This document shows, piece after piece, positions 133 to 12,880 of a stretch of DNA of 12,880 nt. Source of the DNA: Candidatus Bathyarchaeia archaeon. GTDB taxonomy: Archaea; Thermoproteota; Bathyarchaeia; TCS64. The translations under genes and the position numbers were made by a program. Location of the stretch: contig JBEKDF010000053.1 of assembly GCA_050014495.1 (NCBI GenBank), forward strand, positions 1 through 12,880, read 5' to 3'. Each line of letters starts with the position of its first letter. Within the stretch, counting starts at the first letter, position 1. The notes under the pieces are model-generated. The model made no database searches. It had not been told where the DNA came from and saw only the letters and a program-made list of their open reading frames with translations.

Positions 133-163
133 TTGGGATTGGGTTTGGCCATAGTCTTATCCC
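133..163 (+). repeat. Array repeat, G-rich variant B copy 1 (TTGGGATTGGGTTTGGCC-ATAGTCTTATCCC)
   Basis: Matches 1248-1280 and shares the ATAGYCTTATCC core (151-162) with the main repeat family. Confidence 0.7.
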
Positions 164-233
164 CTAAATATGTGCTCACCAATTAATTGAATCACTAACG
201 AGACGAATCAAACATTCAGGCTAGATAAATAAC

Positions 234-1124
234 CTATCCTGACAACGGAATCACCGGTGAATCTTTACCAATGATCAGCACACCCGGAGGAACATCACCA
301 CGGATAGTCTCCAGCAGGATATTCACATTTTCATTAGAAACGGTAGCCATACCTACGCGAATCCTTCCATCACCCGCGTAGCCAACTGAATACAGGATAA
401 GACCCTTGCCTCGCAGTTCTTCGAGACGCATTGAAATTTTGCATCCCCAAGTCTCGATCAACCATTCCGGAATATTATACACCGACTTGGCGCGATAAGA
501 CCAGATCGTCTCGTTTGTGATCTCAGGCTTACCCTCCCACAGAGCCTTATAAGTGGACTTTACGCCCATTGCATTATCGATCTCGTTAAGAAATTGATCG
601 AGTTTCATGCCTTTATACTGCGGCCAGTAAGGAGCACTAGGTGCAACTGTCCCCGCAACAACTTTGAATCTGCCCCAAGGTCCACTTGACGTGCCATAAG
701 GGGTAGATAATCCGCTGCCCTCACCACCAGTTAGAAATAGAACGAATTCCTCGCCTACTTTCATGAGGGGGTCACCATCGGCCTCCACTCTTGTGCCATA
801 TTCGTCTTTACCAATCTGCTGTACAATCACGTTGAGAATCAGCATTCCATCCCCTGACCCTTTAGCTATTTTGAGGGTTTTGAAACGGAAGTTTTTGTAT
901 GGGATCCCGGTGTTATTACCAAATGATTGGATGGACTCGACTCTGCCATAGATTATTACTTTTGAGGAGTTCACGAGTTCCGGGAAGTTGGAGTAGCCAA
1001 CCCAATCAACTTGAATTTTATCGACTCTTGGTGAGGGGGTAAAAGAGTAGGCTAGGGATGCAAGCAGAGTGATGGCGATTATGATGGTGGTGGTTATCGT
1101 TATTAATTGGGTTAGTTTGGGCAT
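234..1124 (-). CDS. Hypothetical secreted or membrane-anchored protein
   Basis: 296-aa ORF with an N-terminal hydrophobic segment (ITITTTIIIAITLLASLAY) followed by a soluble domain. It lies between the two variant-B repeats. Confidence 0.8.
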   Translation of the reverse strand: MPKLTQLITITTTIIIAITLLASLAYSFTPSPRVDKIQVDWVGYSNFPELVNSSKVIIYGRVESIQSFGNNTGIPYKNFRFKTLKIAKGSGDGMLILNVIVQQIGKDEYGTRVEADGDPLMKVGEEFVLFLTGGEGSGLSTPYGTSSGPWGRFKVVAGTVAPSAPYWPQYKGMKLDQFLNEIDNAMGVKSTYKALWEGKPEITNETIWSYRAKSVYNIPEWLIETWGCKISMRLEELRGKGLILYSVGYAGDGRIRVGMATVSNENVNILLETIRGDVPPGVLIIGKDSPVIPLSG

Positions 1125-1247
1125 AGGCTTTCTCTTCTAGTCATCAAACTAGTGAAGCGAGTGATTAGATTTTTCCTACCGTGTACACGTGCTTTCTATT
1201 ATCGAATATTCTATGCATGCATTCAGAGAGAGTAGGAGGAGATGTAA

Positions 1248-1280
1248 TTGGGTTTGGGTTTGGGGCCATAGCCTTATCCC
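1248..1280 (+). repeat. Array repeat, G-rich variant B copy 2 (TTGGGTTTGGGTTTGGGGCC-ATAGCCTTATCCC)
   Basis: Matches 133-163; core ATAGCCTTATCC at 1268-1279. Confidence 0.7.
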
Positions 1281-1334
1281 ACACACACACTTTCCCTAAC
1301 GAACTCATTTTTTCTATATCTGCACGCATCTTAA

Positions 1335-1384
1335 CTCAATAGCCTTATCCTCCGTTCCACCCCGATTCTTCTCCAGTGATTCTA
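1335..1384 (+). repeat. Main array repeat A copy 1
   Basis: CTCAATAGCCTTATCCTCCGTTCCACCCCGATTCTTCTCCAGTGATTCTA, directly upstream of the TTG-GTC-GAT-GCA-CAG start. Confidence 0.9.
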
Positions 1385-1978
1385 TTGGTCGATGCACAGA
1401 CAGTTGGCGTATTGGTGACTGCGACCAGCGTGACGATAGCAGCGATATACTACGTTCTGAACATCAGGATAAGCCAGAGGAACCAGGAACTCATGCTCAA
1501 GTCTCAGGAGACAAGCGTCAAGACGCAGGAGCTCGCTCTGAAGTCGCAGCAGCAAAACCTTGAGACCCGGCAGGTGCAGCTCTTCATGAGCGTCTACCAG
1601 AGATTCGAGGAACCCGACTTCCAGAACGCGTTCTGGGAACAAATGTCATGGCAGATAAAGGACTACGATGACTACGTCGCCAAATACGGTGAGAAGGCGA
1701 ACCCTGAGGCTTGGAGGAAGTATGCGATGGTGAGTACTTTCTTCGAGGGCTTAGGGGTCCTTGTGAAGAGGGGCTTCATAGATGCTGCGATCGTGGACGA
1801 CCTGATGTCGATGTATATAATTGGCTATTGGCAGAAGTATGAATCCATCAACATTGGGTTGCGGAAGTCGATGAACACCCCCACCGCTGCGGAGTACTTT
1901 GAGTATCTCTATGGTGTGGTTTATGGGATTTGGAGGCAGCAGCATCCGGGGTATGAGAATGTGACCTTGTCTCAATAG
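1385..1978 (+). CDS. Single-TM 'MVDAQT' family protein, paralog 1 (DUF4760-like)
   Basis: Paralog of 10828 and 12050, sharing VDAQTxGVLVTAxSVTxAAxYY, D(Y/F)xD(Y/F)xxKY, G-x4-G-x-I and FEYL. The ORF track starts at GTG 1376, but TTG 1385 aligns with the paralogs' ATG. The stop TAG lies inside the next repeat. Family name is from recall. Confidence 0.85.
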   Translation: MVDAQTVGVLVTATSVTIAAIYYVLNIRISQRNQELMLKSQETSVKTQELALKSQQQNLETRQVQLFMSVYQRFEEPDFQNAFWEQMSWQIKDYDDYVAKYGEKANPEAWRKYAMVSTFFEGLGVLVKRGFIDAAIVDDLMSMYIIGYWQKYESINIGLRKSMNTPTAAEYFEYLYGVVYGIWRQQHPGYENVTLSQ

Positions 1979-2045
1979 CCTTATCCTCACTTCCACCTGA
2001 CTCTTACCAGTGAGATTGTAATGGTTGATTCACAGACGATTGGAG
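1971..2045 (+). repeat. Main array repeat A copy 2, extending into a truncated MVDSQTIG stub
   Basis: CTCAATAGCCTTATCCTCACTTCCACCTGACTCTTACCAGTGAGATTGTA-ATGGTTGATTCACAGACGATTGGAG, then unrelated sequence. Confidence 0.9.
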
Positions 2046-2122
2046 CGCTTTCGTGGTATCAGGTAAGCATATTTTTAATCATTCCTACGAACATCATTGA
2101 AGAGAGTAGATGTCTGGCATAA
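2021..2122 (+). pseudogene. Truncated 5' stub of an MVDAQT-family gene fused to unrelated sequence (MVDSQTIGALSWYQVSIFLIIPTNIIEESRCLA*)
   Basis: The first 8 codons match the paralog N-terminus, and similarity ends abruptly at about 2045. Confidence 0.7.
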
Positions 2123-2525
2123 ATAGAAAGATCAAAGGCTGCGGTTTTCACCACGTCTCCATTAGTATAAAAAACTTGGATAAGACAAGAAAGTTCTACT
2201 CTGAGGGACTTGGCTTTGTTGAGAGATTCTCAGGGGCAAGGAACCAAAGAGGACCATCCTTATAGACACTGGTGATGAAAATTACTTCGAAATCTCTCAA
2301 GGAGATCCCAGTCATTCGTATGGGGAGGGCATTTTTCGTCACATAGCCTTGAGGGTAGATGACTGCAAGATGGCTGTTGAATTAGCGAGGAGTGCAGGGG
2401 CTGAGGTTACTGTGGAGCCTAGGGATGTTACACTATCCAGTGATCCGCTTATTCGGATCCGTATCGCATTCTTTAAGGGTCCTGATGATGAGTTAATCGA
2501 ACTTTTTGAAAACGATCAAACTTGA
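2110..2525 (+). pseudogene. VOC/glyoxalase family protein with a 1-nt frameshift
   Basis: The ATG 2110 frame reads MSGINRKIKGCGFHHVSISIKNLDKTRKFYSEGLGF. A shifted frame from about 2235 reads GKEPKRTILIDTGDENYFEI...HIALRVDD...RIAFFKGPDDELIELFENDQT* (TGA 2523-2525). Inserting one T after 2232 restores F-S-W-G-K. Absent from the ORF track. Confidence 0.85.
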
Positions 2526-2620
2526 TACGCTCTGTCACAATAAGATCCTATGGTATAAACTTCATCTAAAGTAAACATACGCAGAAGGATTGAAGAAGGC
2601 TTCATCAACACAGTTTAACC

Positions 2621-3061
2621 ATGAAGACCATCGAATCGAGAGAACAACCGACACTTATCGCCATAGGCCTCGGACCAGGGGAGAAGCTCCTGGAGTCGAT
2701 AAACGAGGCTATAAAATCCAACGAAATTAGGGACGGGGTCGTCATTTCAGGCATAGGGACGTTGAAGCGCTGCCGCATGCACTACGTTAATACAATGTCT
2801 TTCCCAGCAGAGAACTGCTTCTATGTCGTTGAGGAGCCTCTAGAGATAGGATCAATCAGCGGGATCATAGCTGATTACGCGGCCCACCTTCACATGACTG
2901 TGGGGTGTAGGGATCAGCGGACCTACGCTGGGCACCTCGAGGAGGGCTGTGAAGTTCTTTATCTGGCGGAGGTTCTCGTCATGAAGTTATGTGATATGGG
3001 GCTTGAGAGGCGGATTGATCCGCAGTACGGTGTCTCTCTTTTAAGAGAGCGCGTTCGGTGA
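2621..3061 (+). CDS. PPC/DUF296 domain putative DNA-binding protein
   Basis: Motifs LxPGEKLLESI, SGIGTL, LEIxSISG, HLH, AGHL and LAEV. Confidence 0.9.
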   Translation: MKTIESREQPTLIAIGLGPGEKLLESINEAIKSNEIRDGVVISGIGTLKRCRMHYVNTMSFPAENCFYVVEEPLEIGSISGIIADYAAHLHMTVGCRDQRTYAGHLEEGCEVLYLAEVLVMKLCDMGLERRIDPQYGVSLLRERVR

Positions 3062-3108
3062 ACAAGGGTCACTCTGATCTAATTTGCGTACACGGCGAAA
3101 AAGTCCCC

Positions 3109-3159
3109 TTCAATAGCCTTATCCTCACTTCCACCTGATACTTAACCTGAGAGGATTAT
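3109..3159 (+). repeat. Main array repeat A copy 3 (left boundary of the island)
   Basis: TTCAATAGCCTTATCCTCACTTCCACCTGATACTTAACCTGAGAGGATTAT; similarity stops before the ATG position. Confidence 0.9.
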
Positions 3160-3260
3160 ATAGGGCTGGAAACAGGAATTTCCGAGTGGATTTTTAGGAA
3201 AAAGTTTGAGAACGTGACTGGCAGTTCGTTGCCTCGTTGCATCATAGTTATTAAAATTGT

Positions 3261-4064
3261 ATGTATATGATAATCATGCTTCATGATACTCTCCGACCTC
3301 ACCTTCAAAAACCAAAACCAACAAAAGGGTATAAGACAACGAAACCCTGGAATCCTTTCGTTGGATGTGGGTTTGATTGCACCTACTGCAAGCCGAGTTT
3401 CGGGGCATTGTTAAAGTGGGTTGGGGGAATGCATCATTGTACAAGATGCCAGGAATATTTGCCTCACGAGCACCCAGAGAGGCTGAGCCGAATACCCTCA
3501 GATAAAGCCATTTTCGTCTGCGAGGATGGCGACATCTCATTCGCCAAGCCTGATTATATGGCGAAGGTGTTTCAGGCAATCTCTGATCCTAAATTTGCGG
3601 GTAGGACCTGGTTTGTGCAGAGTAAGAACCCCAAGTGTCTGGAGCAATATTTAGGCCTCATTCCTAGGAATACTTACCTAGTCACAACGCTTGAAACGAA
3701 TAGAGATCAAGGATACGGTGAAATTTCGAAAGCACCCCTACCTTCTGCTCGATTCAAGGACTTTTCCCATCTCGACTGGGAGAAGAAGATTGTAACTGTA
3801 GAACCAGTAATGGATTTTGATCTTGAAGTACTAAGGGATTGGATAGTCTCAATTAGTCCTGCAACTGTCTTCATTGGTTACAATAGTAAACCCGATAAGG
3901 TCTCTATCCCAGAGCCCGATAAAATGAAGCTCCTGTGCTTGATTGATGAGTTGGAGAAACGCGATATCCATGTTTTAACAAAGGAGATGCGGGATTGTAA
4001 ATTCGTTAAAAAGGCGTATAAAGATTTTTTAGAATTAAAAAACTATACTATCGGTAATCTTTAA
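3261..4064 (+). CDS. DUF5131 / phage Gp37-Gp68-like protein with radical-SAM-like CxxxCxxC
   Basis: WNPFVGCGFDCTYC motif, DGDISF, QSKNP, TLETN, VTVEP and FIGY. The true start may be a later ATG (for example 3276). Confidence 0.75.
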   Translation: MYMIIMLHDTLRPHLQKPKPTKGYKTTKPWNPFVGCGFDCTYCKPSFGALLKWVGGMHHCTRCQEYLPHEHPERLSRIPSDKAIFVCEDGDISFAKPDYMAKVFQAISDPKFAGRTWFVQSKNPKCLEQYLGLIPRNTYLVTTLETNRDQGYGEISKAPLPSARFKDFSHLDWEKKIVTVEPVMDFDLEVLRDWIVSISPATVFIGYNSKPDKVSIPEPDKMKLLCLIDELEKRDIHVLTKEMRDCKFVKKAYKDFLELKNYTIGNL

Positions 4065-4120
4065 TTTTTTCTCCAACCGTGCGGTTTATATATAGTTGAT
4101 AGGCAACCACTCCGAGATTT

Positions 4121-4537
4121 ATGATAAAAAAATCTTTAACTAAAAACAAGGCCGCAAGCCTTGAGGCACTATTCTGTGTAAAGGGCGTGGTTGAAACAGA
4201 AACGCTCAAGGACATGAATGATAAGGACATAGATACAATCGTTAATGCAATCAACAAATTTGGGTATGATACAGACGGATACACAATAATAGACGCATTA
4301 ATCTATCAAATGCTGGACAGACAACTGGGGCCGTATGTTTCAAGTCGAGAGCTATTGAAAGACATAACGCCACCACACATGCAGGTGAGACATAACCATA
4401 TACGTTCAGGTTTCACAGGCATGAATGATAGGGATTTACATGAAATAATATATGACACATATTCGTCCCTGTTGGAAAGTTACCATGAAAATCAAGCGAT
4501 CTTTGAAAAGAATAAGGAGTATCGAGTAGGTGATTAA
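4121..4537 (+). CDS. Hypothetical protein
   Basis: 138-aa ORF, first of a run of overlapping or abutting ORFs (4121-5489). Confidence 0.7.
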   Translation: MIKKSLTKNKAASLEALFCVKGVVETETLKDMNDKDIDTIVNAINKFGYDTDGYTIIDALIYQMLDRQLGPYVSSRELLKDITPPHMQVRHNHIRSGFTGMNDRDLHEIIYDTYSSLLESYHENQAIFEKNKEYRVGD

Positions 4538-4934
4538 AATGAAACATAACTTCGATAAAGCGCCGGAGCTAACACCCGATCCAATATTCGTGGCTGTGGG
4601 GAATACCGGATCTAATACAGCGGCGGTTATGAAAAAATATCAAATTCTCAAGAATGATACGAAGTTTGCAGATGAATGGCTCAAATCGTGTGAGATATTC
4701 AACGGCCTACCAAACCGTTGTGGTATTATACAAAATTCATTAGAACATATATCTCCACCCAACGTATTGGGCGCTATAATTGCTTCTATGCTAATATTTC
4801 ATTTGGTGCGATTGGACATATCTGTTGATAGCGTCGGAGAAAAAGATCTTAATAATATAATAAACGATCTACTCGCTAACTGCAAATATGTATACGAAGA
4901 CAGCGGTGATATTCTCTCAAAGGGGTTGGGTTGA
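4530..4934 (+). CDS. Hypothetical protein, paralog of 4931..5260
   Basis: Shares MKKYxILxND..DEW..S and IASxLIFHL with the next ORF; overlaps its neighbours. GGTGA just before ATG 4539 suggests that as an alternative start. Confidence 0.75.
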   Translation: MIKMKHNFDKAPELTPDPIFVAVGNTGSNTAAVMKKYQILKNDTKFADEWLKSCEIFNGLPNRCGIIQNSLEHISPPNVLGAIIASMLIFHLVRLDISVDSVGEKDLNNIINDLLANCKYVYEDSGDILSKGLG

Positions 4935-5260
4935 ATATGGTATTGCGGCCTATTCTGGTTTCACAGGCAGATATGGTGGTTCTAATGAAAAAATACAATA
5001 TTCTTGGTAATGATATGCGCCTAACAGACGAATGGTTCAACTCCAATCAAGAGTTGAATAGCTGTCCGGATTATAATGAAATATATTGCCGTGTTCAAAC
5101 TATCGGATTGGACGAGACACATACTCTGATAGCATCGACACTAATATTTCATTTGAATAAAATGGGTGTAAAAAAAATTCGACAGGCCCATCTTAGAGCA
5201 ATTATTGAAATGCTGATATACAATATGAATTGTAACAAAAAGTTGGACTATGTGACATGA
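4931..5260 (+). CDS. Hypothetical protein, paralog of 4530..4934
   Basis: 4-nt TTGA overlap with the upstream ORF and the shared motifs noted above. Confidence 0.75.
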   Translation: MNMVLRPILVSQADMVVLMKKYNILGNDMRLTDEWFNSNQELNSCPDYNEIYCRVQTIGLDETHTLIASTLIFHLNKMGVKKIRQAHLRAIIEMLIYNMNCNKKLDYVT

Positions 5261-5279
5261 AAATGAACAAGAAGAATTA

Positions 5280-5489
5280 TTGCGTGAAAAAAAACTAAAG
5301 AAAGCCATTATATGGTATGTAAAAGCCTATCCATTTGTGACATCCGAAGAAGAAGAAAACTACCAACATGACATAGATGAGTTGTACAAACTACACGAAA
5401 AAGAGAAAGAGATTGAACGCCTAAAGGTGAAAAGGCTAACACAAAAGAAAACCCGAAAAAGTAATTACCCCTTACCCTATGAGCTTTGA
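5280..5489 (+). CDS. Small basic coiled-coil hypothetical protein
   Basis: 69-aa ORF, co-oriented at the end of the operon-like run, Lys/Glu-rich. Confidence 0.55.
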   Translation: MREKKLKKAIIWYVKAYPFVTSEEEENYQHDIDELYKLHEKEKEIERLKVKRLTQKKTRKSNYPLPYEL

Positions 5490-5502
5490 AAAGTATGCTT
5501 CC

Positions 5503-5551
5503 AGAACCACCCTGCGGCACAGAAACACACAGGTCTATGTTGCAGGGTTCT
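5503..5551 (+). other. Imperfect inverted repeat / hairpin
   Basis: ACCCTGCGGCACAGA (5509-5523), a 10-nt loop and TCTATGTTGCAGGGT (5534-5548) form a 15-position stem with two G.T wobbles and one mismatch. Confidence 0.6.
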
Positions 5552-5782
5552 CTAGTAAAGGAGAAGTGGGAATATATCAGGAATTTAACAATATAAAGTG
5601 TAGTTTATGATAATTAAACAAGATTTCATAAATTGTGGCTTTTTCACGGAAACAAAGGACTATCATTATACTATTAATACCCTGTCATACAAACAATCGC
5701 ATACTCATAAACATAGGTTATATATCGATATATTTATGAGACTTACTATGAATCATAAATTTTGCGTAACATATATTAATTA

Positions 5783-6517
5783 TTGGTTGATATATACCGC
5801 ATAGCAGGTATTGTGTCTTTGAATCATAGAAGTGTAGAGACTTTTCGTTTGGATGTAGGCGGTTGGAATGGCTGGAAGTGGTTTGAAGGAATCTACAGCA
5901 AGTGTGAAAATGTAGAGCAGAAAATGATACTGGTTGGGCTTCTAAAGACAGGCAGCAGGTCAAATGAACTTAACAAATTGACCAGGGATATGGTAGATTT
6001 GGATACTTATAACAATGCCATTTTAATAAAGAACCAACCACTAGAGAAGCAGAAGAAGGCTATTCAGTTAGTGGATAATAATGGCAATTATATGTATGAT
6101 GATAACAGAAGGCTATACAGGTTTGAGCATGTAGATGGTTGGAGAACATACTTATTTCCAAAGAAGGAAAGATACTCCCACTTGTTCACAAGACTAGTTG
6201 AACTTTGTGATGACCCAAAGGAACTGGTGTTTCCCTTTAGTTACAGCCAAATTTATTACAGGATATGCACCATAGGGATGGAATTGCCCGAAGGTGTGCC
6301 CAAGAAGGATTGGGCTTACCATTTGGACAAGGGTTGTGGGCTTTTTCCCCATGAACTTAGGAGTATCCGCGCTTGCCAACTTCTGAGGGATTACCGTTAC
6401 AACAACCAGCAGCTACGCAAATTCTTCGGTTGGGCCGAAGATAGTCCCATGCCCGACCACTACATGGAACTTACACCAGATGACCTAATTCCTTCACCAG
6501 AGTTAATGCCTAAATAG
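5783..6517 (+). CDS. Tyrosine recombinase/integrase (catalytic domain only)
   Basis: Catalytic motifs in order: TGSRSNEL (R), candidate K in EKQKK, PHELR (HxxR), FFGW (W at the H/W position) and DHY (nucleophile Y). Confidence 0.88.
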   Translation: MVDIYRIAGIVSLNHRSVETFRLDVGGWNGWKWFEGIYSKCENVEQKMILVGLLKTGSRSNELNKLTRDMVDLDTYNNAILIKNQPLEKQKKAIQLVDNNGNYMYDDNRRLYRFEHVDGWRTYLFPKKERYSHLFTRLVELCDDPKELVFPFSYSQIYYRICTIGMELPEGVPKKDWAYHLDKGCGLFPHELRSIRACQLLRDYRYNNQQLRKFFGWAEDSPMPDHYMELTPDDLIPSPELMPK

Positions 6518-6643
6518 AGAGTGTGCGCAACAGGCTGAAATGAGTGCGCATGTAGCTAGAGCGTAGCGTGCAACCTTGAGAACCTCCAAATTATTAATTA
6601 AACTAATCAAATTTAACAGATCTATCCAATTGAGCATGAATTT

Positions 6644-6931
6644 CTAGTATTCCCTCCGGAAGTCGTGGTAGACCCCATCCCGAACCTGGCCGATGTAATC
6701 ACCATCCTCGATGACCCATAGAATCTTGTGGCCATCTTTAGCCATCTTCCCCCAGACGGAGTTCTTCTCAGGGTTCTGCTCCAGGAACGTGTAGCCTTCG
6801 ACTATTAGGAACCTCAGGCCCTGCCTGGAGGTGCGCCTCACCTTATGAGTTATGTTCTCAATATTGGCGGTCTTCTGTTCGCTGAAGGTTGCCTCGTATG
6901 CCTTGATCGCTACATCCTCCAGGTTCTTCAA
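6644..6931 (-). CDS. Hypothetical protein
   Basis: 95-aa ORF with a protein-like EQNPxKxSxWxxxAxxG segment and host-like GC-rich codons. Confidence 0.7.
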   Translation of the reverse strand: MKNLEDVAIKAYEATFSEQKTANIENITHKVRRTSRQGLRFLIVEGYTFLEQNPEKNSVWGKMAKDGHKILWVIEDGDYIGQVRDGVYHDFRREY

Positions 6932-7057
6932 AATGCTTCAATGAAAATGATTGATCTTATTTCATAAAACCTCTTGCTTACCCAGTAGTTTCATTCTCCC
7001 GCCCGTCCTCCCGATTTATGCGACTTCGTTTTTATGCGTGACTCGTAGGGCTACCCT

Positions 7058-7864
7058 GTGCTTACGCCAGAGCAGATCGGGAGGTTCTACCGTCAGTGGA
7101 GGCCCTCGGATGTTCATCGGAGCTGGCCCCAGCTCTGGAATAAGCATTATAGAATAAGGGTCCAGGATGACATTTTCATCAAGCTAAACAAGCATCGCAG
7201 CCGACTCGGTTTCGATTCCCTGCGTAGGCTCTGCCTGGAGTATGCTCCCGGGAACATCTACATGAGTGTCCTCAATTGGATGATGCCTGAGAGGGTAGGC
7301 GATAAGAGGGCCTCAGTGGGGGCCTATCCAATAGGCGGTGAATATGTTATCGACATCGATTCATATCTTAATTATAAGAAACACAATCACCACACTGAGG
7401 ATGGAGTCTGCGAGGGCTGTCTAGAGGGTTCCAAGCAGCTCACCGAGAGGTTTATTGACGAGGTTAAGCAGAATTACAGCGACTTAAGGATCGTATTCAG
7501 TGGCAAATCTGGCTTTCATATCCACGTCCTGGACTTCGAGGTTAGGGATTGGGTGAGATATGATGAGAGGTACCCGCTGAGAAGCCACGCTGCGGCCCGG
7601 TTCATGTACTCGACCATCCTGAATGATTCGGTGAAGGGCTTCGATAGGCACCACTTTATACTAAGCTCAGATGTACTAAGGGTCATTACCTTCCCCGAGT
7701 CGCTGAACGGTGAGACGGGGCTCGTCTGCTCCCACCTCGGCGGTGCCATAGAGTTCAACAGCCTGAAGGTCTACGAGATCCTAGAAGGCGCGAAGTCTGC
7801 AAAAGGTCTAACTTCAGGATTCAATTTTGTAAGTGCAGATAAAATACGAAAGATAATTATTTAA
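7058..7864 (+). CDS. Archaeo-eukaryotic primase (PriS-like primase/polymerase)
   Basis: AEP motif I EYVIDID, motif II FSGKSGFHIHV, SDVLRVITFPESLN resembling motif III (D..R...P.SL), and a putative Zn site H..H....C..C. Confidence 0.85.
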   Translation: MLTPEQIGRFYRQWRPSDVHRSWPQLWNKHYRIRVQDDIFIKLNKHRSRLGFDSLRRLCLEYAPGNIYMSVLNWMMPERVGDKRASVGAYPIGGEYVIDIDSYLNYKKHNHHTEDGVCEGCLEGSKQLTERFIDEVKQNYSDLRIVFSGKSGFHIHVLDFEVRDWVRYDERYPLRSHAAARFMYSTILNDSVKGFDRHHFILSSDVLRVITFPESLNGETGLVCSHLGGAIEFNSLKVYEILEGAKSAKGLTSGFNFVSADKIRKIII

Positions 7865-8393
7865 CTATAAAAAATGATAACTTTTTGATTATTAAGCCAA
7901 TAAGGATGGATCTAATTATTATCATATAAGGAAAATTCATAAAAAATATAGTTAATAGAATAATAGAATAGATGGAAGCTTCTAATAACTCTGATAATTT
8001 ATATGCGGTCTTATTGGCAAGTTGCATTTGTGAATAAGCAGTTCTCCAAGGCAACTCTTGTTCGAGTAAGGTTTTCATACTAATTGTTCTTGATTTAATA
8101 ATTACCTTAAGATTATCAGTTGCCACCAAACCTCTAATAATGAATAAAATTAAGCTGAAGAAAAATAAAGAATTAAAAAACCCAAGAGAATCAATTAAAC
8201 TAAAACCTAAAATTAATGCAACTTCAAGAATAATATCTTGCGTGTATTTTCCCTGTGCAAGCTGACTTCTAACTCTTGTATTCCGTTCTAGTTCGATCCC
8301 ACCCTCTCTTGTAAAAATGTAAGTAGTATAGAAATCTGCTAAAGCTCCTACACTTATAAGAATTAAACCTAAAGTAAAAATGGCTAAGTCCAA
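7857..8393 (-). CDS. Multi-pass membrane protein (DUF5658-like motif)
   Basis: Several hydrophobic helices and an ADFYTTY...GxExxxN motif; very AT-rich; converges on and overlaps the primase stop. Confidence 0.65.
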   Translation of the reverse strand: MDLAIFTLGLILISVGALADFYTTYIFTREGGIELERNTRVRSQLAQGKYTQDIILEVALILGFSLIDSLGFFNSLFFFSLILFIIRGLVATDNLKVIIKSRTISMKTLLEQELPWRTAYSQMQLANKTAYKLSELLEASIYSIILLTIFFMNFPYMIIIRSILIGLIIKKLSFFIVK

Positions 8394-8450
8394 CTAACCT
8401 TCATCGTCCATATTACCCTTTGCATTAGTTACCAGATATAATAATTAAGG

Positions 8451-8553
8451 CAACATTCACTCGTCTGCCTCCTACTCAGATGTGCTTAGGTTTATTAAAA
8501 ATTGAGAATGAATCCAATTGCTTGAGGTCCAATCATTGAATGTTTTAATCACC
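8451..8553 (+). repeat. Repeat family C copy 1 (degenerate upstream region plus 5' stub of the 9574 gene)
   Basis: 8451-8493 matches 9491-9533 at 37/43 positions. Weaker similarity continues through TGAGGTCC...CATTGA and TTG-AAT-GTT-TTA-ATC-ACC versus TTG-AGT-ATC-ATG-GTC-ACA. Confidence 0.8.
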
Positions 8554-8606
8554 TGCCTGCGCTGTATCCTTAGATGCTCTAATCTTGTTGGAACAAGAGC
8601 GAGAAA

Positions 8607-9419
8607 TCAAAAAATTTTAGTCGCGCCTTGGAAAGTTGGATCATACCTTGGTTCTGTATGTTGAACGATGTCACTTCCTCTTTTTTGAGTCCATCGATCT
8701 CCTTCTCTTTCAGTAATTATCCAAGTTTCACTTGAGCCCAAAAATTCAGCTTGAGTGACCCAGTTAAACTGATTTTTACTCAATATAGCCGTTTGAATTA
8801 AACCACCAACATATCTCGAGACTTGTGGTACTATTATGTCATTACTTAAAACTACAGAACAATAATTTAGCCAATCCAACGGGTTGTCATTTAACACTTT
8901 TCCAGATTTACAATATTCATCAAGTTTCTGATGGAATAAGTTTCTTGTGGATTCATTTGCCCCAATAGCATATAACCCATCAACTATTTCTGCATGAAAA
9001 GGAAAGGGTGAATCGTTTCTTAACAAATATAGGTCCGGACTATTTTCATAACGTCCCCATATCCCAATTAAAAAATATAAAGGGGAATTCTCGGTTCGTC
9101 CCTTCTGTAATTGTGAATATTTTTCTCGAGCAATATTTTGAAGATTATCTATTTTTTCAAATGTACTTTTATTAGAATTAACTTGCAGATAATTCTTAAA
9201 TGATTTAATACATTCTAGAGCCCCATGCACCCATCCAGCATATACTAGCCCTACGTCATTTGATAATGAAAATATTTTAGGTCCGACATCGTTTATTTCA
9301 TTTGTAACATTATCAGTAAATCGACTATCAGTCAAAAAAATTATACCTTGGGGTCCGGGTCCTCCAGGTGCTGTCTTAAAAATCCCCCAGGGATATTTTC
9401 CAGCAATAGATAATGTCAT
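8607..9419 (-). CDS. Proteasome beta-subunit-like Ntn hydrolase
   Basis: ATG 9419 gives Met-Thr (Thr1 nucleophile), followed by TDSR, PKI, YAG, YAIG and VGG in the order expected for the proteasome/HslV fold. The ORF track start is TTG 9431. Confidence 0.75.
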   Translation of the reverse strand: MTLSIAGKYPWGIFKTAPGGPGPQGIIFLTDSRFTDNVTNEINDVGPKIFSLSNDVGLVYAGWVHGALECIKSFKNYLQVNSNKSTFEKIDNLQNIAREKYSQLQKGRTENSPLYFLIGIWGRYENSPDLYLLRNDSPFPFHAEIVDGLYAIGANESTRNLFHQKLDEYCKSGKVLNDNPLDWLNYCSVVLSNDIIVPQVSRYVGGLIQTAILSKNQFNWVTQAEFLGSSETWIITEREGDRWTQKRGSDIVQHTEPRYDPTFQGATKIF

Positions 9420-9490
9420 TATTTTTGACAATGCTATTTTGAAATTTATTGTTTGTGAACTATTTTTACATTCTTAGAAGGTTATCTAGT

Positions 9491-9591
9491 CGACATTCAC
9501 TCTACTGTCTCCTACTCGGATGTGCCTAGGTTTTAAGAGGTTGAGCGAGCCGCCACTCGATGAGGTCCCTGCATTGAGTATCATGGTCACA
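9491..9591 (+). repeat. Repeat family C copy 2 (upstream region and start of the 9574 gene)
   Basis: Direct repeat of 8451-8553. Confidence 0.8.
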
Positions 9592-9951
9592 TTGAGCCAG
9601 AGTCAAGTAGAGAAGCTGCTTAGCATTATCGAAGAGAGTGAGAAGTGCCTACTAGAAGCCCGAAGCATCCTCAGCATGAATGCCTCAACCAGAACAGTCC
9701 AATCACCTACTAATCAAACGACTCCAAGTATAGAGTACATCAAGTGGAGGATCAAGGGCGGCAGCTCAGCGGGTCCCAATGATGACTTCGCGTTCGACTT
9801 CACACAGGACAGGGATGGGAATGTGTCGCGAGAGAAAGCACCGATTATCGATTACATCAAGCAGAAGGGCCCATTCCAAGTTGAGGGTTATGAAGTCAAT
9901 CTAAGCAAGGATGGCAAGTTCCTCCAGCGGAAGAAGGTGGGAACCACTTGA
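9574..9951 (+). CDS. Hypothetical protein (N-terminal helix, low-complexity linker, C-terminal small domain)
   Basis: In frame with ORF 9520..9951. A GAGGT RBS favours a start at TTG 9574 or ATG 9583. Confidence 0.75.
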   Translation: MSIMVTLSQSQVEKLLSIIEESEKCLLEARSILSMNASTRTVQSPTNQTTPSIEYIKWRIKGGSSAGPNDDFAFDFTQDRDGNVSREKAPIIDYIKQKGPFQVEGYEVNLSKDGKFLQRKKVGTT

Positions 9952-10229
9952 TTCAGGAACTTGAAGCCCTGGACTTCGTCGGCGAGATGAGTCAAGCGAC
10001 CGGCGTAAAAGTCGCAATCGGTGTGAATACCTACATCGAGGAATCGGACCCGTTCTCCGAGTATGTGATCCTCATAGACCCCTCCAGTTTTAGTGATGAG
10101 GATGAGTCGAAGCTGGAGGAGTACTCTACGAGGAGAGGAGTAAGAATAGTCGAATCTTGGAATGATTGGGGTAGGTTCCTGAAGATCATGAAGCTGAGGA
10201 CCGTGTTCGTCTCCGCATTCTCACCCTGA
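9948..10229 (+). CDS. Acidic hypothetical protein
   Basis: 93 aa, TTGA overlap with the upstream ORF; its stop is at the start of the 66-bp repeat. Confidence 0.7.
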   Translation: MIQELEALDFVGEMSQATGVKVAIGVNTYIEESDPFSEYVILIDPSSFSDEDESKLEEYSTRRGVRIVESWNDWGRFLKIMKLRTVFVSAFSP

Positions 10230-10291
10230 GCCCCTTAATGAAGGGACGGTGATATTGGCGCATAAGGACGTGGAGCGGAGCGGGGGTGAGG
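10226..10291 (+). repeat. Repeat family D copy 1 (66 bp)
   Basis: CTGAGCCCCTTAATGAAGGGACGGTGATATTGGCGCATAAGGACGTGGAGCGGAGCGGGGGTGAGG; 63/66 identical to 10618-10683; internal CCCTT-N4-AAGGG hairpin. Confidence 0.9.
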
Positions 10292-10324
10292 CAATGAGGC
10301 TCCCGACGTGATTCTTGGTGAAAA

Positions 10325-10621
10325 ATGATGAAAGACTTCGAGGAAGCATCTAGGAAGGTTTGGGAAGATAGTCTGTGGCGGTTTGAGGGTGAAGCGATGA
10401 AGGCATTATCGGACCCGGGGGACCGTCAAGCGCTCACGGATATGATAAACGAGTGGAAGCGATTGGGTGAGTCTACCCTGTTGAAGCTCTCCCAGAATCA
10501 GCCGTGGAATATGCCTCTATACTTCGCCCTCTCCGCTGCAATACTCAACAGGAGAGAGATAATCAGGCTCAGAAAGAGTCTGGTTACCAGCGGGGAAAAC
10601 ATGGCTTCACTCCTACACTGA
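10325..10621 (+). CDS. Hypothetical helical protein
   Basis: 98 aa with a GGTGA RBS upstream; its stop is at the start of the second 66-bp repeat. Confidence 0.75.
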   Translation: MMKDFEEASRKVWEDSLWRFEGEAMKALSDPGDRQALTDMINEWKRLGESTLLKLSQNQPWNMPLYFALSAAILNRREIIRLRKSLVTSGENMASLLH

Positions 10622-10683
10622 GCCCCTTGATGAAGGGACGGTGATATTGGCGCATAAGGACATGGGGCGGAGCGGGGGTGAGG
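10618..10683 (+). repeat. Repeat family D copy 2 (66 bp)
   Basis: Three mismatches to 10226-10291. Confidence 0.9.
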
Positions 10684-10779
10684 TGTCTAGGTATAGGGAT
10701 AGGTACCTGTCGAGAATGGGTATTAGGAAGTCCCTGGGTCTTGGGGCCTCGCCTTTTTATGACGGTGGCTTCAAGGCTT

Positions 10780-10827
10780 CTCAATAGTCTTATCCAAACT
10801 TCAACCTGACTCTAACCCAGTGATTCT
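10780..10827 (+). repeat. Main array repeat A copy 4
   Basis: CTCAATAGTCTTATCCAAACTTCAACCTGACTCTAACCCAGTGATTCT, then ATG 10828. Confidence 0.9.
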
Positions 10828-11349
10828 ATGGTTGATGCGCAGACCATTGGAGTATTAGTTACAGCAGCGAGTGTGACGGTAGCTGCTATCTATTACATAG
10901 TTAATCTGAGGGAGACCACCAAAAACAGGCGAGCCACCCTGACAAACAACATCATACAACCATTCACCACGAAGGAGTTCGCTAAGGACTGGCTAGCCCT
11001 CGTGAGCATGAGGTGGGATGGCTTCGAGGACTTCCAGAAAAAGTATGACTCAAGGGTCAACCCCGAGAACTTCGCCCTGAGAATATCCTTCTGGAACCTC
11101 TGCGACTCAATCGGATACCAGTATAGGAGTGGCTTAATCGACATAGGAACCGTATACAACGTCGCCGGCATCTGGATTGCTGACGCGTGGTTCATGTTTG
11201 GACCGGTAATTAGGGAGTATCGGAAATTGGATTACCCTAAGAACATATATGAGAACTTCGAGTATCTAGCTGATGTTCTCGGTAAGATGATTGGACAAAA
11301 GGATTCTGATTGGGATAAGAAGATGGAGCAGGTTGTCTTAACTCATTAG
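10828..11349 (+). CDS. Single-TM 'MVDAQT' family protein, paralog 2 (DUF4760-like)
   Basis: MVDAQTIGVLVTAASVTVAAIYY N-terminus, WDGFEDFQKKY, GLID and FEYL; ends 5 nt before the next repeat. Confidence 0.88.
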   Translation: MVDAQTIGVLVTAASVTVAAIYYIVNLRETTKNRRATLTNNIIQPFTTKEFAKDWLALVSMRWDGFEDFQKKYDSRVNPENFALRISFWNLCDSIGYQYRSGLIDIGTVYNVAGIWIADAWFMFGPVIREYRKLDYPKNIYENFEYLADVLGKMIGQKDSDWDKKMEQVVLTH

Positions 11350-11354
11350 GTAAC

Positions 11355-11392
11355 CTCAATAGCCTTATCCTCACTTCCACCTGACTCTAATC
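11355..11392 (+). repeat. Main array repeat A copy 5
   Basis: CTCAATAGCCTTATCCTCACTTCCACCTGACTCTAATC, truncated before CAGTGA and abutting the nitroreductase stop. Confidence 0.92.
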
Positions 11393-11396
11393 TCTT

Positions 11397-11954
11397 TCAT
11401 TTTATCCATTTTAATATGTTAGGCTTGTTCCTCTTACCCGATCCCTGCTTGTTCTTTGGGTAGCCAAGAATCAGAGACACCATCACATCGTACCCCTCGG
11501 GTACCCCGACCTTACTCATAACCTCCGGTTTACTCCCCACAAGCACGTCGATCCAACCCATGTAGCAGGTCCCCAGACCCAGCTCGTACGCCTTCAGGGA
11601 CATGTTCTGCTCGGCGAGCGCGCTGTCAATCAGATTAGAGTGACTGAATGACTTGTCAGTCTCCGCGCATATCAGGATCAGTACCGGAGCATCATAGCAA
11701 ATTATGTCTTCGCTGGTCTCAAACCGCTTAGCGAACAGGGGAAACGCCTCGCTCACGGCTTTCTTGGCTTCATCGGAGACGTATCTGATGGTGTCCCTGT
11801 TCTCAATTATGAAGAAGCGCCACGGTTGCCGACCCATCGCCGTCGCCGCCCAGACGCCGGCTTCGAGTATGGCTTCGATCTTCTCCTTCGGGACGGGTTC
11901 GGCTGTGTAGGCTCTTACGCTTCTCCTACCCTTGATGCATGTCTCAAGTTCCAT
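11397..11954 (-). CDS. Nitroreductase family protein
   Basis: IKGRRSVRAY, A-T-AMGRQPWRF, APVLI, D...A..N..LxAxELGLGTCY and LGYP. ATG 11954 is preferred over GTG 11972. Confidence 0.93.
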   Translation of the reverse strand: MELETCIKGRRSVRAYTAEPVPKEKIEAILEAGVWAATAMGRQPWRFFIIENRDTIRYVSDEAKKAVSEAFPLFAKRFETSEDIICYDAPVLILICAETDKSFSHSNLIDSALAEQNMSLKAYELGLGTCYMGWIDVLVGSKPEVMSKVGVPEGYDVMVSLILGYPKNKQGSGKRNKPNILKWIK

Positions 11955-12001
11955 GTGTAGATGTCGGTACACTACTTTTATTCAAAGTTTGAGTTGTGTT
12001 C

Positions 12002-12049
12002 CTCAATAGCCTTATCCTCACTCCTACCTGACTCTAACCCAGTGATTCT
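12002..12049 (+). repeat. Main array repeat A copy 6
   Basis: CTCAATAGCCTTATCCTCACTCCTACCTGACTCTAACCCAGTGATTCT, then ATG 12050. Confidence 0.92.
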
Positions 12050-12598
12050 ATGGTTGATGCGCAGACCATTGGAGTATTAGTTACAGCAACAAGCGTGACT
12101 GTGGCAGCGGTCTACTACATTATGACCCTGAGGACCCAGCGGATGAACATGAAGAACACCCTGGAAACGCGGAGAATAGGAGTAGTCCAGAACATGATGA
12201 CTGCCCTTAGCAGCTTTGAAGGGCAGAAAGCTGGAATAGAAACGGCTAACTTCGAGTGGAAGGACTACGAGGACTTCGAGAGGAAGTATGGAACAGACAA
12301 TGATGTGGACGCCGCTGCTAAGAGGTTCATGTTGTGGCAATCCTGGAATGGTATGGGCTTGATGCTCCGCAGGGGGATGATCGAAGCCGAGGATCTCTAT
12401 GACATAGGAGGGTCAATGGTGGTTATGCACTGGAAAAAGTGGGAGCCAATAGTTCAAGAGATTAGGAGGAGGTATTGGGGTTCGGATTATCTTAGAGACT
12501 TTGAGTACCTGAATGATGAGATGATGAAGATTAAGATAATGAGGGATTCCTCGTACAAGGTACCTGAGACCTTTTTCAAGTATGTACCAGATAAGTGA
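12050..12598 (+). CDS. Single-TM 'MVDAQT' family protein, paralog 3 (DUF4760-like)
   Basis: MVDAQTIGVLVTATSVTVAAVYY, WKDYEDFERKYG, GMI and DFEYL. Confidence 0.88.
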   Translation: MVDAQTIGVLVTATSVTVAAVYYIMTLRTQRMNMKNTLETRRIGVVQNMMTALSSFEGQKAGIETANFEWKDYEDFERKYGTDNDVDAAAKRFMLWQSWNGMGLMLRRGMIEAEDLYDIGGSMVVMHWKKWEPIVQEIRRRYWGSDYLRDFEYLNDEMMKIKIMRDSSYKVPETFFKYVPDK

Positions 12599-12606
12599 CC
12601 GCATCC

Positions 12607-12684
12607 TTACAAAGTCTTATCCTCACTTCCACCTGACTCTAATCAGTGATTCTATGGTCGATGCGCAGACGATTGGAGTGTTAG
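12607..12684 (+). repeat. Main array repeat A copy 7, extending into a truncated MVDAQTIGVL stub
   Basis: TTACAAAGTCTTATCCTCACTTCCACCTGACTCTAATCAGTGATTCT-ATGGTCGATGCGCAGACGATTGGAGTGTTAG. Confidence 0.9.
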
Positions 12685-12740
12685 CATTGCAATTCGTGAC
12701 AATTCGATATTTCAGTTTGGCAGCAGCACCAGGGCTATGA
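12654..12740 (+). pseudogene. Truncated MVDAQT-family stub (MVDAQTIGVLALQFVTIRYFSLAAAPGL*)
   Basis: The first 10 codons match the paralogs, then unrelated sequence and a stop at 12738-12740. Confidence 0.7.
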
Positions 12741-12754
12741 CAAGATGTTTTTAT

Positions 12755-12778
12755 CTCAATAGCCTTATCCTCAGTTCA
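12755..12778 (+). repeat. Main array repeat A copy 8 (shortest)
   Basis: CTCAATAGCCTTATCCTCAGTTCA, then diverges. Confidence 0.85.
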
Positions 12779-12803
12779 CTTTAATCCTTATGTGTGAAGA
12801 TAC

Positions 12804-12880
12804 TTGCCAAAAATTAAGTTAAATGGGGTAGAGTTCTACTACGAAGTCCATGGAGAGGGCTATCCGCTGATAATGATCCA
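12804..12880 (+). CDS. Alpha/beta hydrolase, partial 5' end running off the window
   Basis: TTG 12804 gives MPKIKLNGVEFYYEVHGEGYPLIMI(H), a typical alpha/beta-hydrolase N-terminus (YYExxGxGxPLxxIHG). Confidence 0.8.
   Translation, partial: MPKIKLNGVEFYYEVHGEGYPLIMI

Follow-up and report, generated by a model that had tools for sequence, protein, structure and literature searches.

The repeat that divides an archaeal contig into gene-sized units is the 13–14-bp sequence that flanks casposons in this genome and its sister species, and it probably serves their Cas1-family enzyme as a landing site. The contig, a stretch of 12,880 nt from a Candidatus Bathyarchaeia archaeon that we call the window, is the entire contig C53 of a 3.1-Mb genome, G000 (G handles denote genomes, C handles contigs of G000 and L handles loci of relatives). 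On the same evidence the window is probably part of a gene array built by a casposase. The one-gene units lined up in it are likely to represent a relative of the CRISPR array on the scale of genes, made by a Cas1-type enzyme, and not an integron, to which the original prediction had likened them. Judging from their ends, the units in the window are likely not casposons themselves, save one likely mini-element in the 151–1268 interval.

A complete casposon sits at the core of this repeat. L096, a 5,397-bp contig bounded by perfect terminal inverted repeats (TIRs) of 123 nt, encodes, at 217–1284, a Cas1 (TIGR00287) that lies outside any cas operon and keeps its E, H and D/E catalytic motifs intact in an alignment to PDB 6OPM/4N06. 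This Cas1 is 80% identical to the one on G000 contig C80 (1669–2646), and its neighbours are a protein-primed family B DNA polymerase (PolB; PF03175, E 6e-33) and small open reading frames (ORFs). The G000 contigs C6 and C57 terminate in inverted tips that are complementary at 121 of 121 nt, and each has a 98-nt overlap with L096 at 100% identity. L096 contains 123 nt of the inverted tip and the ends of the host contigs add 24 nt, for a full length of 147 nt. Outside each tip, on C6 and C57 alike, stands CCATAGCCTTATC, bordered in turn by the tip of a neighbouring unit. Together, the tips, the overlaps and the flanking CCATAGCCTTATC place a complete casposon at the core, with a duplication of 13 bp (14 counting one ambiguous C). 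L096 has all four of the sequence features by which casposons are defined (PMC4046053): a solo Cas1, a family B polymerase, TIRs and a target site duplication (TSD), the last deduced from the contig overlaps. Its protein-primed PolB, length and 13-bp TSD make it look like a family 1 casposon. Read depth over L096 is about that of the window's unique DNA in all four sequencing runs that hold the window, although one run may be the source of L096 and depth is not copy number. A collapsed 147-nt tip contig appears in two of these four runs, and one contig extends, from other DNA, 3.7 kb beyond the tip. PolB of the L096 type was found in this element only, and a search of the 18 genomes of the genus returned none.

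The same core recurs throughout the window and the genome. The original prediction placed ten same-orientation cores in the window, and all ten were verified on the + strand together with the intervals between them (near 151, 1268, 1339, 1975, 3113, 10784, 11359, 12006, 12611 and 12759). Seven read exactly ATAGCCTTATCC, those at 151 and 10784 read ATAGTCTTATCC, and the one at 12611 reads AAAGTCTTATCC. Across G000 there are 111 exact copies of ATAGCCTTATCC and 149 exact ATAGYCTTATCC cores, against about 1.2 of the latter expected under an order-4 Markov model; a reversed control pattern had no match in the genome, and relaxed rules give 241–249 sites. The core varies least at TTAT/ATAA. Site pairs less than 3 kb apart are co-oriented in 142 of 158 cases with a median gap of 640 bp, and as many as ten tip-less one-gene units stand in a row. 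Contig C75 shares 122 nt (100% identity) with the last unit of the window and carries ten further sites beyond the overlap. Genes had been noted to pack tightly against the sites, and this holds genome-wide: the last ORF lies on the site strand in 108 units, and in 76 of them it terminates no more than 25 nt from the core that follows; in 25 the TAG of that core serves as the stop codon. The stop codon reported inside a repeat (1976–1978) is likewise confirmed as the TAG of a DUF4760 ORF. Viral contigs held no site.

The sites are not attC, as had been proposed. None of 11 stretches folded (ten sites, one also on the - strand) beats its shuffles (z -0.4 to +1.2), and an Rfam scan matched nothing. 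The motif is also not restricted to promoters of syntenic genes. We rejected a tRNA target or tRNA mimic, as none of the 41 tRNA genes of G000 overlaps a site, the nearest lies 574 bp away and the best match covers 10 of 12 nt. A native chromosomal copy of the target was absent from the site-poor relatives G001, G003, G006 and G017, and G010 holds two degenerate copies.

The repeat extends beyond the 12 bp first described and carries two kinds of arms that had been missed. On its right, the core continues either into arm B (TCACTTCCACCTGA or TGAGTTCCACCTGA), which we call the leader arm, followed by GTGA, a motif resembling a ribosome site, and by a start codon some 45 nt away from the core, or into a C-tip (CCCAAACCC or CACACAC). 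What precedes the core on the left is a G-tip (GGGTTTGGGG or TGTGTGGG) or else a gene end, in many cases CTCA. The 247 junctions of G000 fall into classes x-B (164), x-C (23), G-B (22), G-C (17) and other (21), and from sequence the first four would look like empty target, left end, right end and tandem junction, respectively. Tips go with units, not with sites. A G-tip closes 16 of the 37 units that start with a C-tip, compared with 25 of the 194 that start with the leader arm (odds ratio for pairing within units 5.2, p 6e-5), and tip subtypes agree in 10 of 12 comparisons within units, against 10 of 23 across sites. The dinucleotide CA precedes the core in 5 of 36 x-C sites and in 134 of 240 x-B sites.

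Tip-less units are organized around the leader arm. They open with core and arm, again a landing site with ribosome site and start codon, mostly carry DUF4760 genes and finish flush at the next core. The start codon lies at about +44 to +47 from the core in 59 of 103 forward leader-start units, and the first ORF is reversed in 19 of 122 leader-start units; sites with no downstream gene and sites with reversed genes occur as well. As separate observations, non-DUF4760 ORFs of 484, 850, 102 and 274 aa (C50:9110, the C24 unit 15745-13135, the C72 unit 1147-776 and L024:102) begin at +45 to +49 from the core with MV(D/E)-like residues, as though they had been joined to the ribosome site and start codon that the leader supplies. 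A conserved inverted-repeat motif of about 50 bp, CTTAWCCCAAA-N5-TTTGGYATAAGCCT.., has 17 copies in G000 and 16 in nine loci of relatives (C7:91940, C16:226, C75:3873 and 30 more). Often this motif makes up the right end of a unit or, between two sites, a gene-less unit of 75–100 bp; in sequence it resembles a degenerate core followed by C-tip, G-tip and another core, which would make it a spacer-sized micro-element.

A Cas1 family accompanies the sites. Clustering all G000 ORFs yielded a six-member Cas1 family near sites, with a single intact copy (on C80), and tblastn gives 12 matches including fragments, 8 of which have a site no farther than 2.5 kb away; of random positions, 14% do. Seven loci (L052, L053, L054, L057, L092, L094 and L120) hold Cas1 elements of 3.4–6.9 kb between direct cores with inner tips; both flanking cores are identical over 13–14 bp in L052, L057 and L092, and in L057 and L092 they are rare variants. 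The core is thus the direct repeat that flanks Cas1 elements with terminal inverted repeats, from which we conclude that the gene platform derives from casposons. Sites occur at 25 of 54 Cas1 loci (47 sites; 0–1 in shuffles), a set that includes duplicates of each other and of stretches of the G genomes. Tips adjoin 37 of these 47 sites; genome-wide the figure is 72 of 249. We also considered the core as the tip of the TIR instead of a TSD; in L092, L120 and L052 the end cores are asymmetric, and we rejected this reading because the cores at both ends read in direct orientation and no outer duplication is seen.

Most Cas1 elements lack PolB. No ORF of PolB size or with PolB motifs lies inside the elements L052, L053, L054, L092 and L120; instead most elements carry an ATPase-like gene, a helix-turn-helix (HTH) gene and, from a structure model, an AEP-like gene, with tips of about 10–36 bp. 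AEP-like, ATPase-like and small basic genes (L138:5857-6444, L098:2789-3766, L138:6458-6952), common to PolB-less Cas1 elements, stand divergent from HTH-cas1, and the set offers a lead, and only a lead, to a possible second replication module for casposons. Runs of GCGCGC mark points where a Cas1 fragment or arm B breaks off beside a core (C17:5280-5366; L066:3718).

The sites and the Cas1 family overlap in distribution. Leader-type sites occur in 13 of 301 genomes of the class, namely 11 of the 18 in the genus and two singletons elsewhere. After exclusion of three CRISPR-type Cas1 matches (26–30% identity), the Cas1 family is present in 9 of 10 genus genomes with at least two leader-type sites and in 2 of the 8 others. 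A distant Cas1 clade (58–60% identity) has a related core of its own, TTAAATTTTAA. The best 120 matches of one Cas1 member are all at least 63% identical to it, and by this measure the family appears to be large.

Units are shuffled between contexts. The repeat had been proposed to bound movable gene units, and across 398 sites (G000 and 43 loci) we found 16 pairs with near-identical left flanks, 11 with near-identical right flanks and none with both, so that neighbours changed in 27 of 27 near-identical unit pairs. The window unit 1339–1975 recurs with other neighbours in L013 (87%), twice in L014 and on G000 C24, and the 3' end of the 12759 unit recurs beside other neighbours in L133 (98.6%). 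Arrays and duplicated units with differing neighbours also occur inside single contigs (L013, L014). In 15 of the 16 left-linked pairs the linkage is gone by about +26.

The dominant cargo is DUF4760, with 92 matches in G000. Three units of the window are DUF4760 paralogues that had escaped notice. A DUF4760-type head opens 80 of 124 leader-start units longer than 300 bp, the remaining 44 carry unrelated genes in either orientation, and DUF4760 number follows core number (rho 0.69). The DUF4760 loci retrieved from G001 and G010 have no site. The family had no PADLOC or PHROG match, and the confident all-helical model of the DUF4760 protein at 12050–12598 matched no PDB fold at E<=0.001. An Atlas model of the same protein reaches a TM of 0.64, under the naming bar, to a cluster in which putAbiC (putative abortive infection) makes up 72%; the resemblance between models is a lead to an anti-virus role of the approximately 90 DUF4760 paralogues.

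We propose that casposase chemistry at the core accounts for these arrays to different degrees. A casposase would cut the core with a 13–14-nt stagger, with arm B acting as its leader. That such an enzyme cuts the core and inserts tip-bearing elements beside the leader arm is very probable, and these elements would prefer CC-type cores. We give roughly even chances to the further step, in which the casposase also excises tip-less core-to-core segments and reinserts them by the same chemistry, and DUF4760-type units bring fresh landing sites so that arrays feed themselves. Because a B-start unit regenerates core and leader, each insertion would add a target. Host homologous recombination in the shared head of about 100 bp would reshuffle units further, and tip-bounded blocks that contain B-sites, clear in three cases among 23 closed elements, would carry targets between loci. 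As four site-poor relatives have no native target and tRNA genes have none either, the landing site appears to travel with its cargo.

Several observations weigh against a casposase as builder of the arrays. The two cores around a unit resemble each other at chance level in tip-bounded units (5 of 16, 3.5 expected) and in tip-less units (48 of 169, 44 expected); likeness exceeds chance only for units with a leader start and a G end (10 of 25, 6.2 expected). Breakpoints do not single out the core: in about 7 of 11 right-linked pairs identity sets in only close to the start codon, and the leader arm goes with neither flank, the pattern that repeated homologous recombination would give. A G-tip closes only 23 of 67 C-tips within 12 kb. 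The distribution of Cas1 is weak evidence taken alone, because core number correlates just as well with genome size (rho 0.74) as with Cas1 (rho 0.69) and kin are not independent; on the Cas1 tree, too, clustering by core type is only weak (8 of 200 shuffles). G005, with 13 cores, has no Cas1-family match, and the window itself contains no Cas1 gene. The C6–L096–C57 join rests on contig overlaps with no spanning read, and the run unitigs, which break at the repeat, contain no excised circle, excision junction or empty L096 site.

Host recombination could produce part of this pattern. The core would then be a casposon target that is also the 5' flank of an expanding DUF4760 family, unequal crossover and gene conversion would build the tip-less arrays, and the casposase would add only the tip-bearing elements. 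The prevalence of DUF4760-type heads, the parallel rise of DUF4760 and core numbers, the frequent switch of right-linked pairs near the start codon and the chance-level identity of the cores around tip-less units all fit this account. Since repeated recombination in the shared head explains the linkage equally well, we regard it as a serious if unlikely explanation. Homology begins abruptly at the core, however, with no space for an upstream promoter, and the 76 of 108 unrelated 3' ends that stop within 25 nt of a core, 25 of them on its TAG, would require many independent joins. A DUF4760 flank would also not predict the 44 of 124 leader-start units without that head, the 19 of 122 with a reversed first ORF, or the DUF4760 loci of G001 and G010 that have no site.

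Recombination of the repeats by a tyrosine recombinase, either the 5783 protein or a host Xer-type enzyme, as the original prediction thought possible, is very improbable. In such an integron- or rAID-like system the use of the repeat by casposons would be coincidental or later. Cassette-like anatomy and changing neighbours suit it, as does the precedent of rAID-1, with non-attC repeats and an XerD-like enzyme (bioRxiv 10.1101/471110), and G000 has 13 PF00589 matches, a few of them 0.7–2.6 kb from arrays. The 5783 protein, however, was found in G000 only (1 of 19 genomes searched); G011, with 81 cores, and G015 have no PF00589 match; PF00589 counts do not follow core numbers (rho 0.36, p 0.14); and no recombinase gene consistently heads the arrays. 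On this distribution we rejected a tyrosine recombinase as the cognate enzyme. There is also no attC fold, and an integron integrase (IntI) was rejected, the best TIGR02249 score among 11 G000 proteins scanned being 75 against a cut-off of 265; three PF00589 matches left unscanned are a fragment, a broken gene and a false hit. It is just as improbable that the motif is a promoter or regulator site of accessory genes, with an apparent shuffling that arose where a repeat exceeding the k-mer length was mis-assembled or brought mixed strains together. The regular start codon distance in 59 of 103 units speaks for this, as do 7.5% contamination of the assembly, the 67 of 241 sites within 1 kb of a contig end and unitigs that break at sites. 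Such a reading is largely refuted by sites that flank a casposon exactly. Sites without a downstream gene or with reversed genes, re-neighboured duplicates within single contigs, equivalent pairs across genomes and a core unlike the consensus of the archaeal TATA box also contradict it.

The arrays combine traits of casposons, CRISPR arrays and integrons, compared here as the cited portions of the literature describe them. Known casposases recognize a leader plus TSD and duplicate 13–15 bp, and the target stays usable, giving tandem elements (PMC5137440, PMC4779613, PMC6614799). The family 1 casposase has a 13-bp TSD with an ATAA ruler inside it and integrates TIR-less DNA of up to about 4 kb (PMC8464041). 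Excision of a Methanosarcina mazei casposon leaves a single empty target, for which a staggered cut in both TSDs and an undetected circle were proposed (PMC10359463), and the in vivo substrate of casposases is stated as unknown (PMC6977970). Like the family 1 casposons of Ca. Nitrosopumilus koreensis AR1 (PMC8464041, PMC4046053), the elements here have a solo Cas1 of about 340–355 aa without a C-terminal HTH, long TIRs and a protein-primed PolB (L096), a 13-bp direct repeat, ATAA in the duplicated segment and a probable leader plus TSD target. They differ in their Bathyarchaeia host, in a target that is a cargo-borne site with about 250 copies per genome and not the 3' end of a core gene, in the lack of PolB and the short tips of most relatives, and in units without enzyme or tips that far outnumber full elements. 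With family 2 casposons of A. boonei and Methanosarcina they share a 14–15-bp TSD, tandem elements with one common TSD and, by the proposed mechanism, a leader-dependent target that survives insertion and precise excision to one empty site (PMC5137440, PMC6614799, PMC4779613, PMC10359463). Family 2 elements insert at tRNA genes or at one or two sites between genes and occur as arrays of two full elements, whereas here no tRNA gene of 41 is hit and runs reach ten tip-less units.

CRISPR arrays likewise have co-oriented repeats, variable inserts, a Cas1-family integrase and a leader-like arm. Unlike them, the arrays here hold gene-sized inserts of variable length, give each tip-less unit its own leader and form no repeat hairpin; cas2 was not noted among families common to solo-cas1 loci, with no search aimed at it. 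Integrons, including archaeal ones, resemble the arrays in short co-oriented one-gene units, stop codons in the site, neighbour changes and similar cargo (bioRxiv 10.1101/2022.02.06.479319); in contrast to integrons the arrays have no attC fold, no IntI and no attI beside an integrase, and their site is a casposon TSD. The rAID-1 elements of Bacteroidales also place non-attC intergenic repeats among paralogue-rich accessory genes, although their conserved 5' XerD-like recombinase heads none of these arrays (bioRxiv 10.1101/471110). We found no description of Bathyarchaeia integron-type gene cassettes or casposons in the literature, whose supplements may list such elements; a search on DUF4760 gave one paper, on genomic islands of Serratia. 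Of the undescribed archaeal gene platform that had been proposed, the shuffled gene units stand; a system of a wholly undescribed kind does not, as it derives from the known casposon superfamily.

These arrays bear on the relation between casposons and CRISPR. The case for an origin of CRISPR arrays from casposons has rested on homology of the enzymes, on in vitro work and on full elements that occur as tandem pairs. Here one genome carries a casposon target about 250 times, with as many as ten repeat-gene units in a row, and has in addition an apparently intact element with casposase and PolB, mini-elements and tip-less units. This co-occurrence in one organism makes it testable whether a lone Cas1-family enzyme builds repeat-insert arrays from end-less DNA. 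We tentatively suggest, while leaning slightly the other way, that a casposase was co-opted as the engine of a self-propagating cassette system that captures and reshuffles genes without transposon ends, each unit with its own leader. If so, it would be a living intermediate between casposons and CRISPR in which "spacers" have the size of genes and some 90 variants of DUF4760 predominate. Archaea would thereby have a way of capturing genes that is invisible to integron-finding tools, and the enzyme would be a candidate site-specific integrase with a defined 13–14-bp target and kilobase cargo.

Within the window, a G-tip together with a degenerate C-tip bounds only the unit at 163–1265, and leader-start units have no tips. 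The roughly 25 nt that follow the CACACACAC-type tip of the second junction match the left end of the L092 Cas1 element. The intervals had been read as mostly holding one or two genes; the 7.7-kb interval is a mixed accessory block with AT-rich ORFs, a tyrosine recombinase, PriS-like and proteasome-like genes and small repeated genes.

Features of the 12,880-nt window, with positions counted from its first letter
Feature	Position	Strand	Remarks
Tandem-type junction	135..171	+	G-rich tip of previous unit (..GGGATTGGGTTTGG), 13–14-bp core 149–162, degenerate C-tip
Tip-bounded unit without enzyme, likely non-autonomous mini-casposon	163..1265	.	Degenerate C-tip on the left, GGGTTTGGGTTTGGGG tip on the right
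Cargo ORF, 296 aa, hydrophobic N-terminus	234..1124	-	No Pfam, NCBIfam, PHROG or PADLOC family
Tandem-type junction	1249..1310	+	G-tip, core 1266–1279, CACACACAC-type tip; truncated 71-bp remnant
Landing site, core and degenerate leader arm B	1337..1364	+
DUF4760 gene	1376..1978	+	Stop codon TAG (1976–1978) within next core
Landing site, core and leader arm TCACTTCCACCTGA, then DUF4760 5' stub	1973..2000	+
Glyoxalase/VOC gene, two frames (frameshifted)	2110..2525	+
PCC-domain gene	2621..3061	+	90% identical copy in L052 ends at same site; neighbours differ
Landing site, core and arm B	3111..3138	+
Mixed accessory block, 7.7 kb between two sites, not a one-gene cassette	3139..10781	.
Divergent tyrosine recombinase, passenger	5783..6517	+	Weak PF00589/phrog_216
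Landing site, core and arm B	10782..10809	+
DUF4760 gene	10828..11349	+	Unit 84% like G000 C66 4520-3930
Landing site, core and arm B	11357..11384	+
Nitroreductase gene, reversed inside unit	11397..11972	-
Landing site, core and arm B	12004..12031	+
DUF4760 gene	12050..12598	+	All-helical model, 50-residue N-terminal helix
Landing site (core variant AAAGTC..) and arm B, then 148-bp deleted DUF4760 stub	12609..12636	+
Landing site and start of unit with alpha/beta-hydrolase-like ORF (named from sequence)	12757..12880	+

The accessory block contains further repeated material. Just upstream of the 5783 recombinase lie three AT-rich tandem ORFs without a family (138, 134 and 109 aa; 4121–5260), with nucleotide repeats inside them (4629 and 4985). 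A stand-alone PriS-like primase gene at 7058–7864 has partial copies on G000 contigs C13, C22, C24 and C32. At 9478–10760, three small genes with 76-bp direct repeats (10216, 10608) form a block that recurs partly on C40, C56, C15, C21 and C16, and whose end adjoins a core at C40:2142 and C56:4456. In the window, a degenerate reverse-strand core near 9465 matches the position of the C40 and C56 core beside that block.

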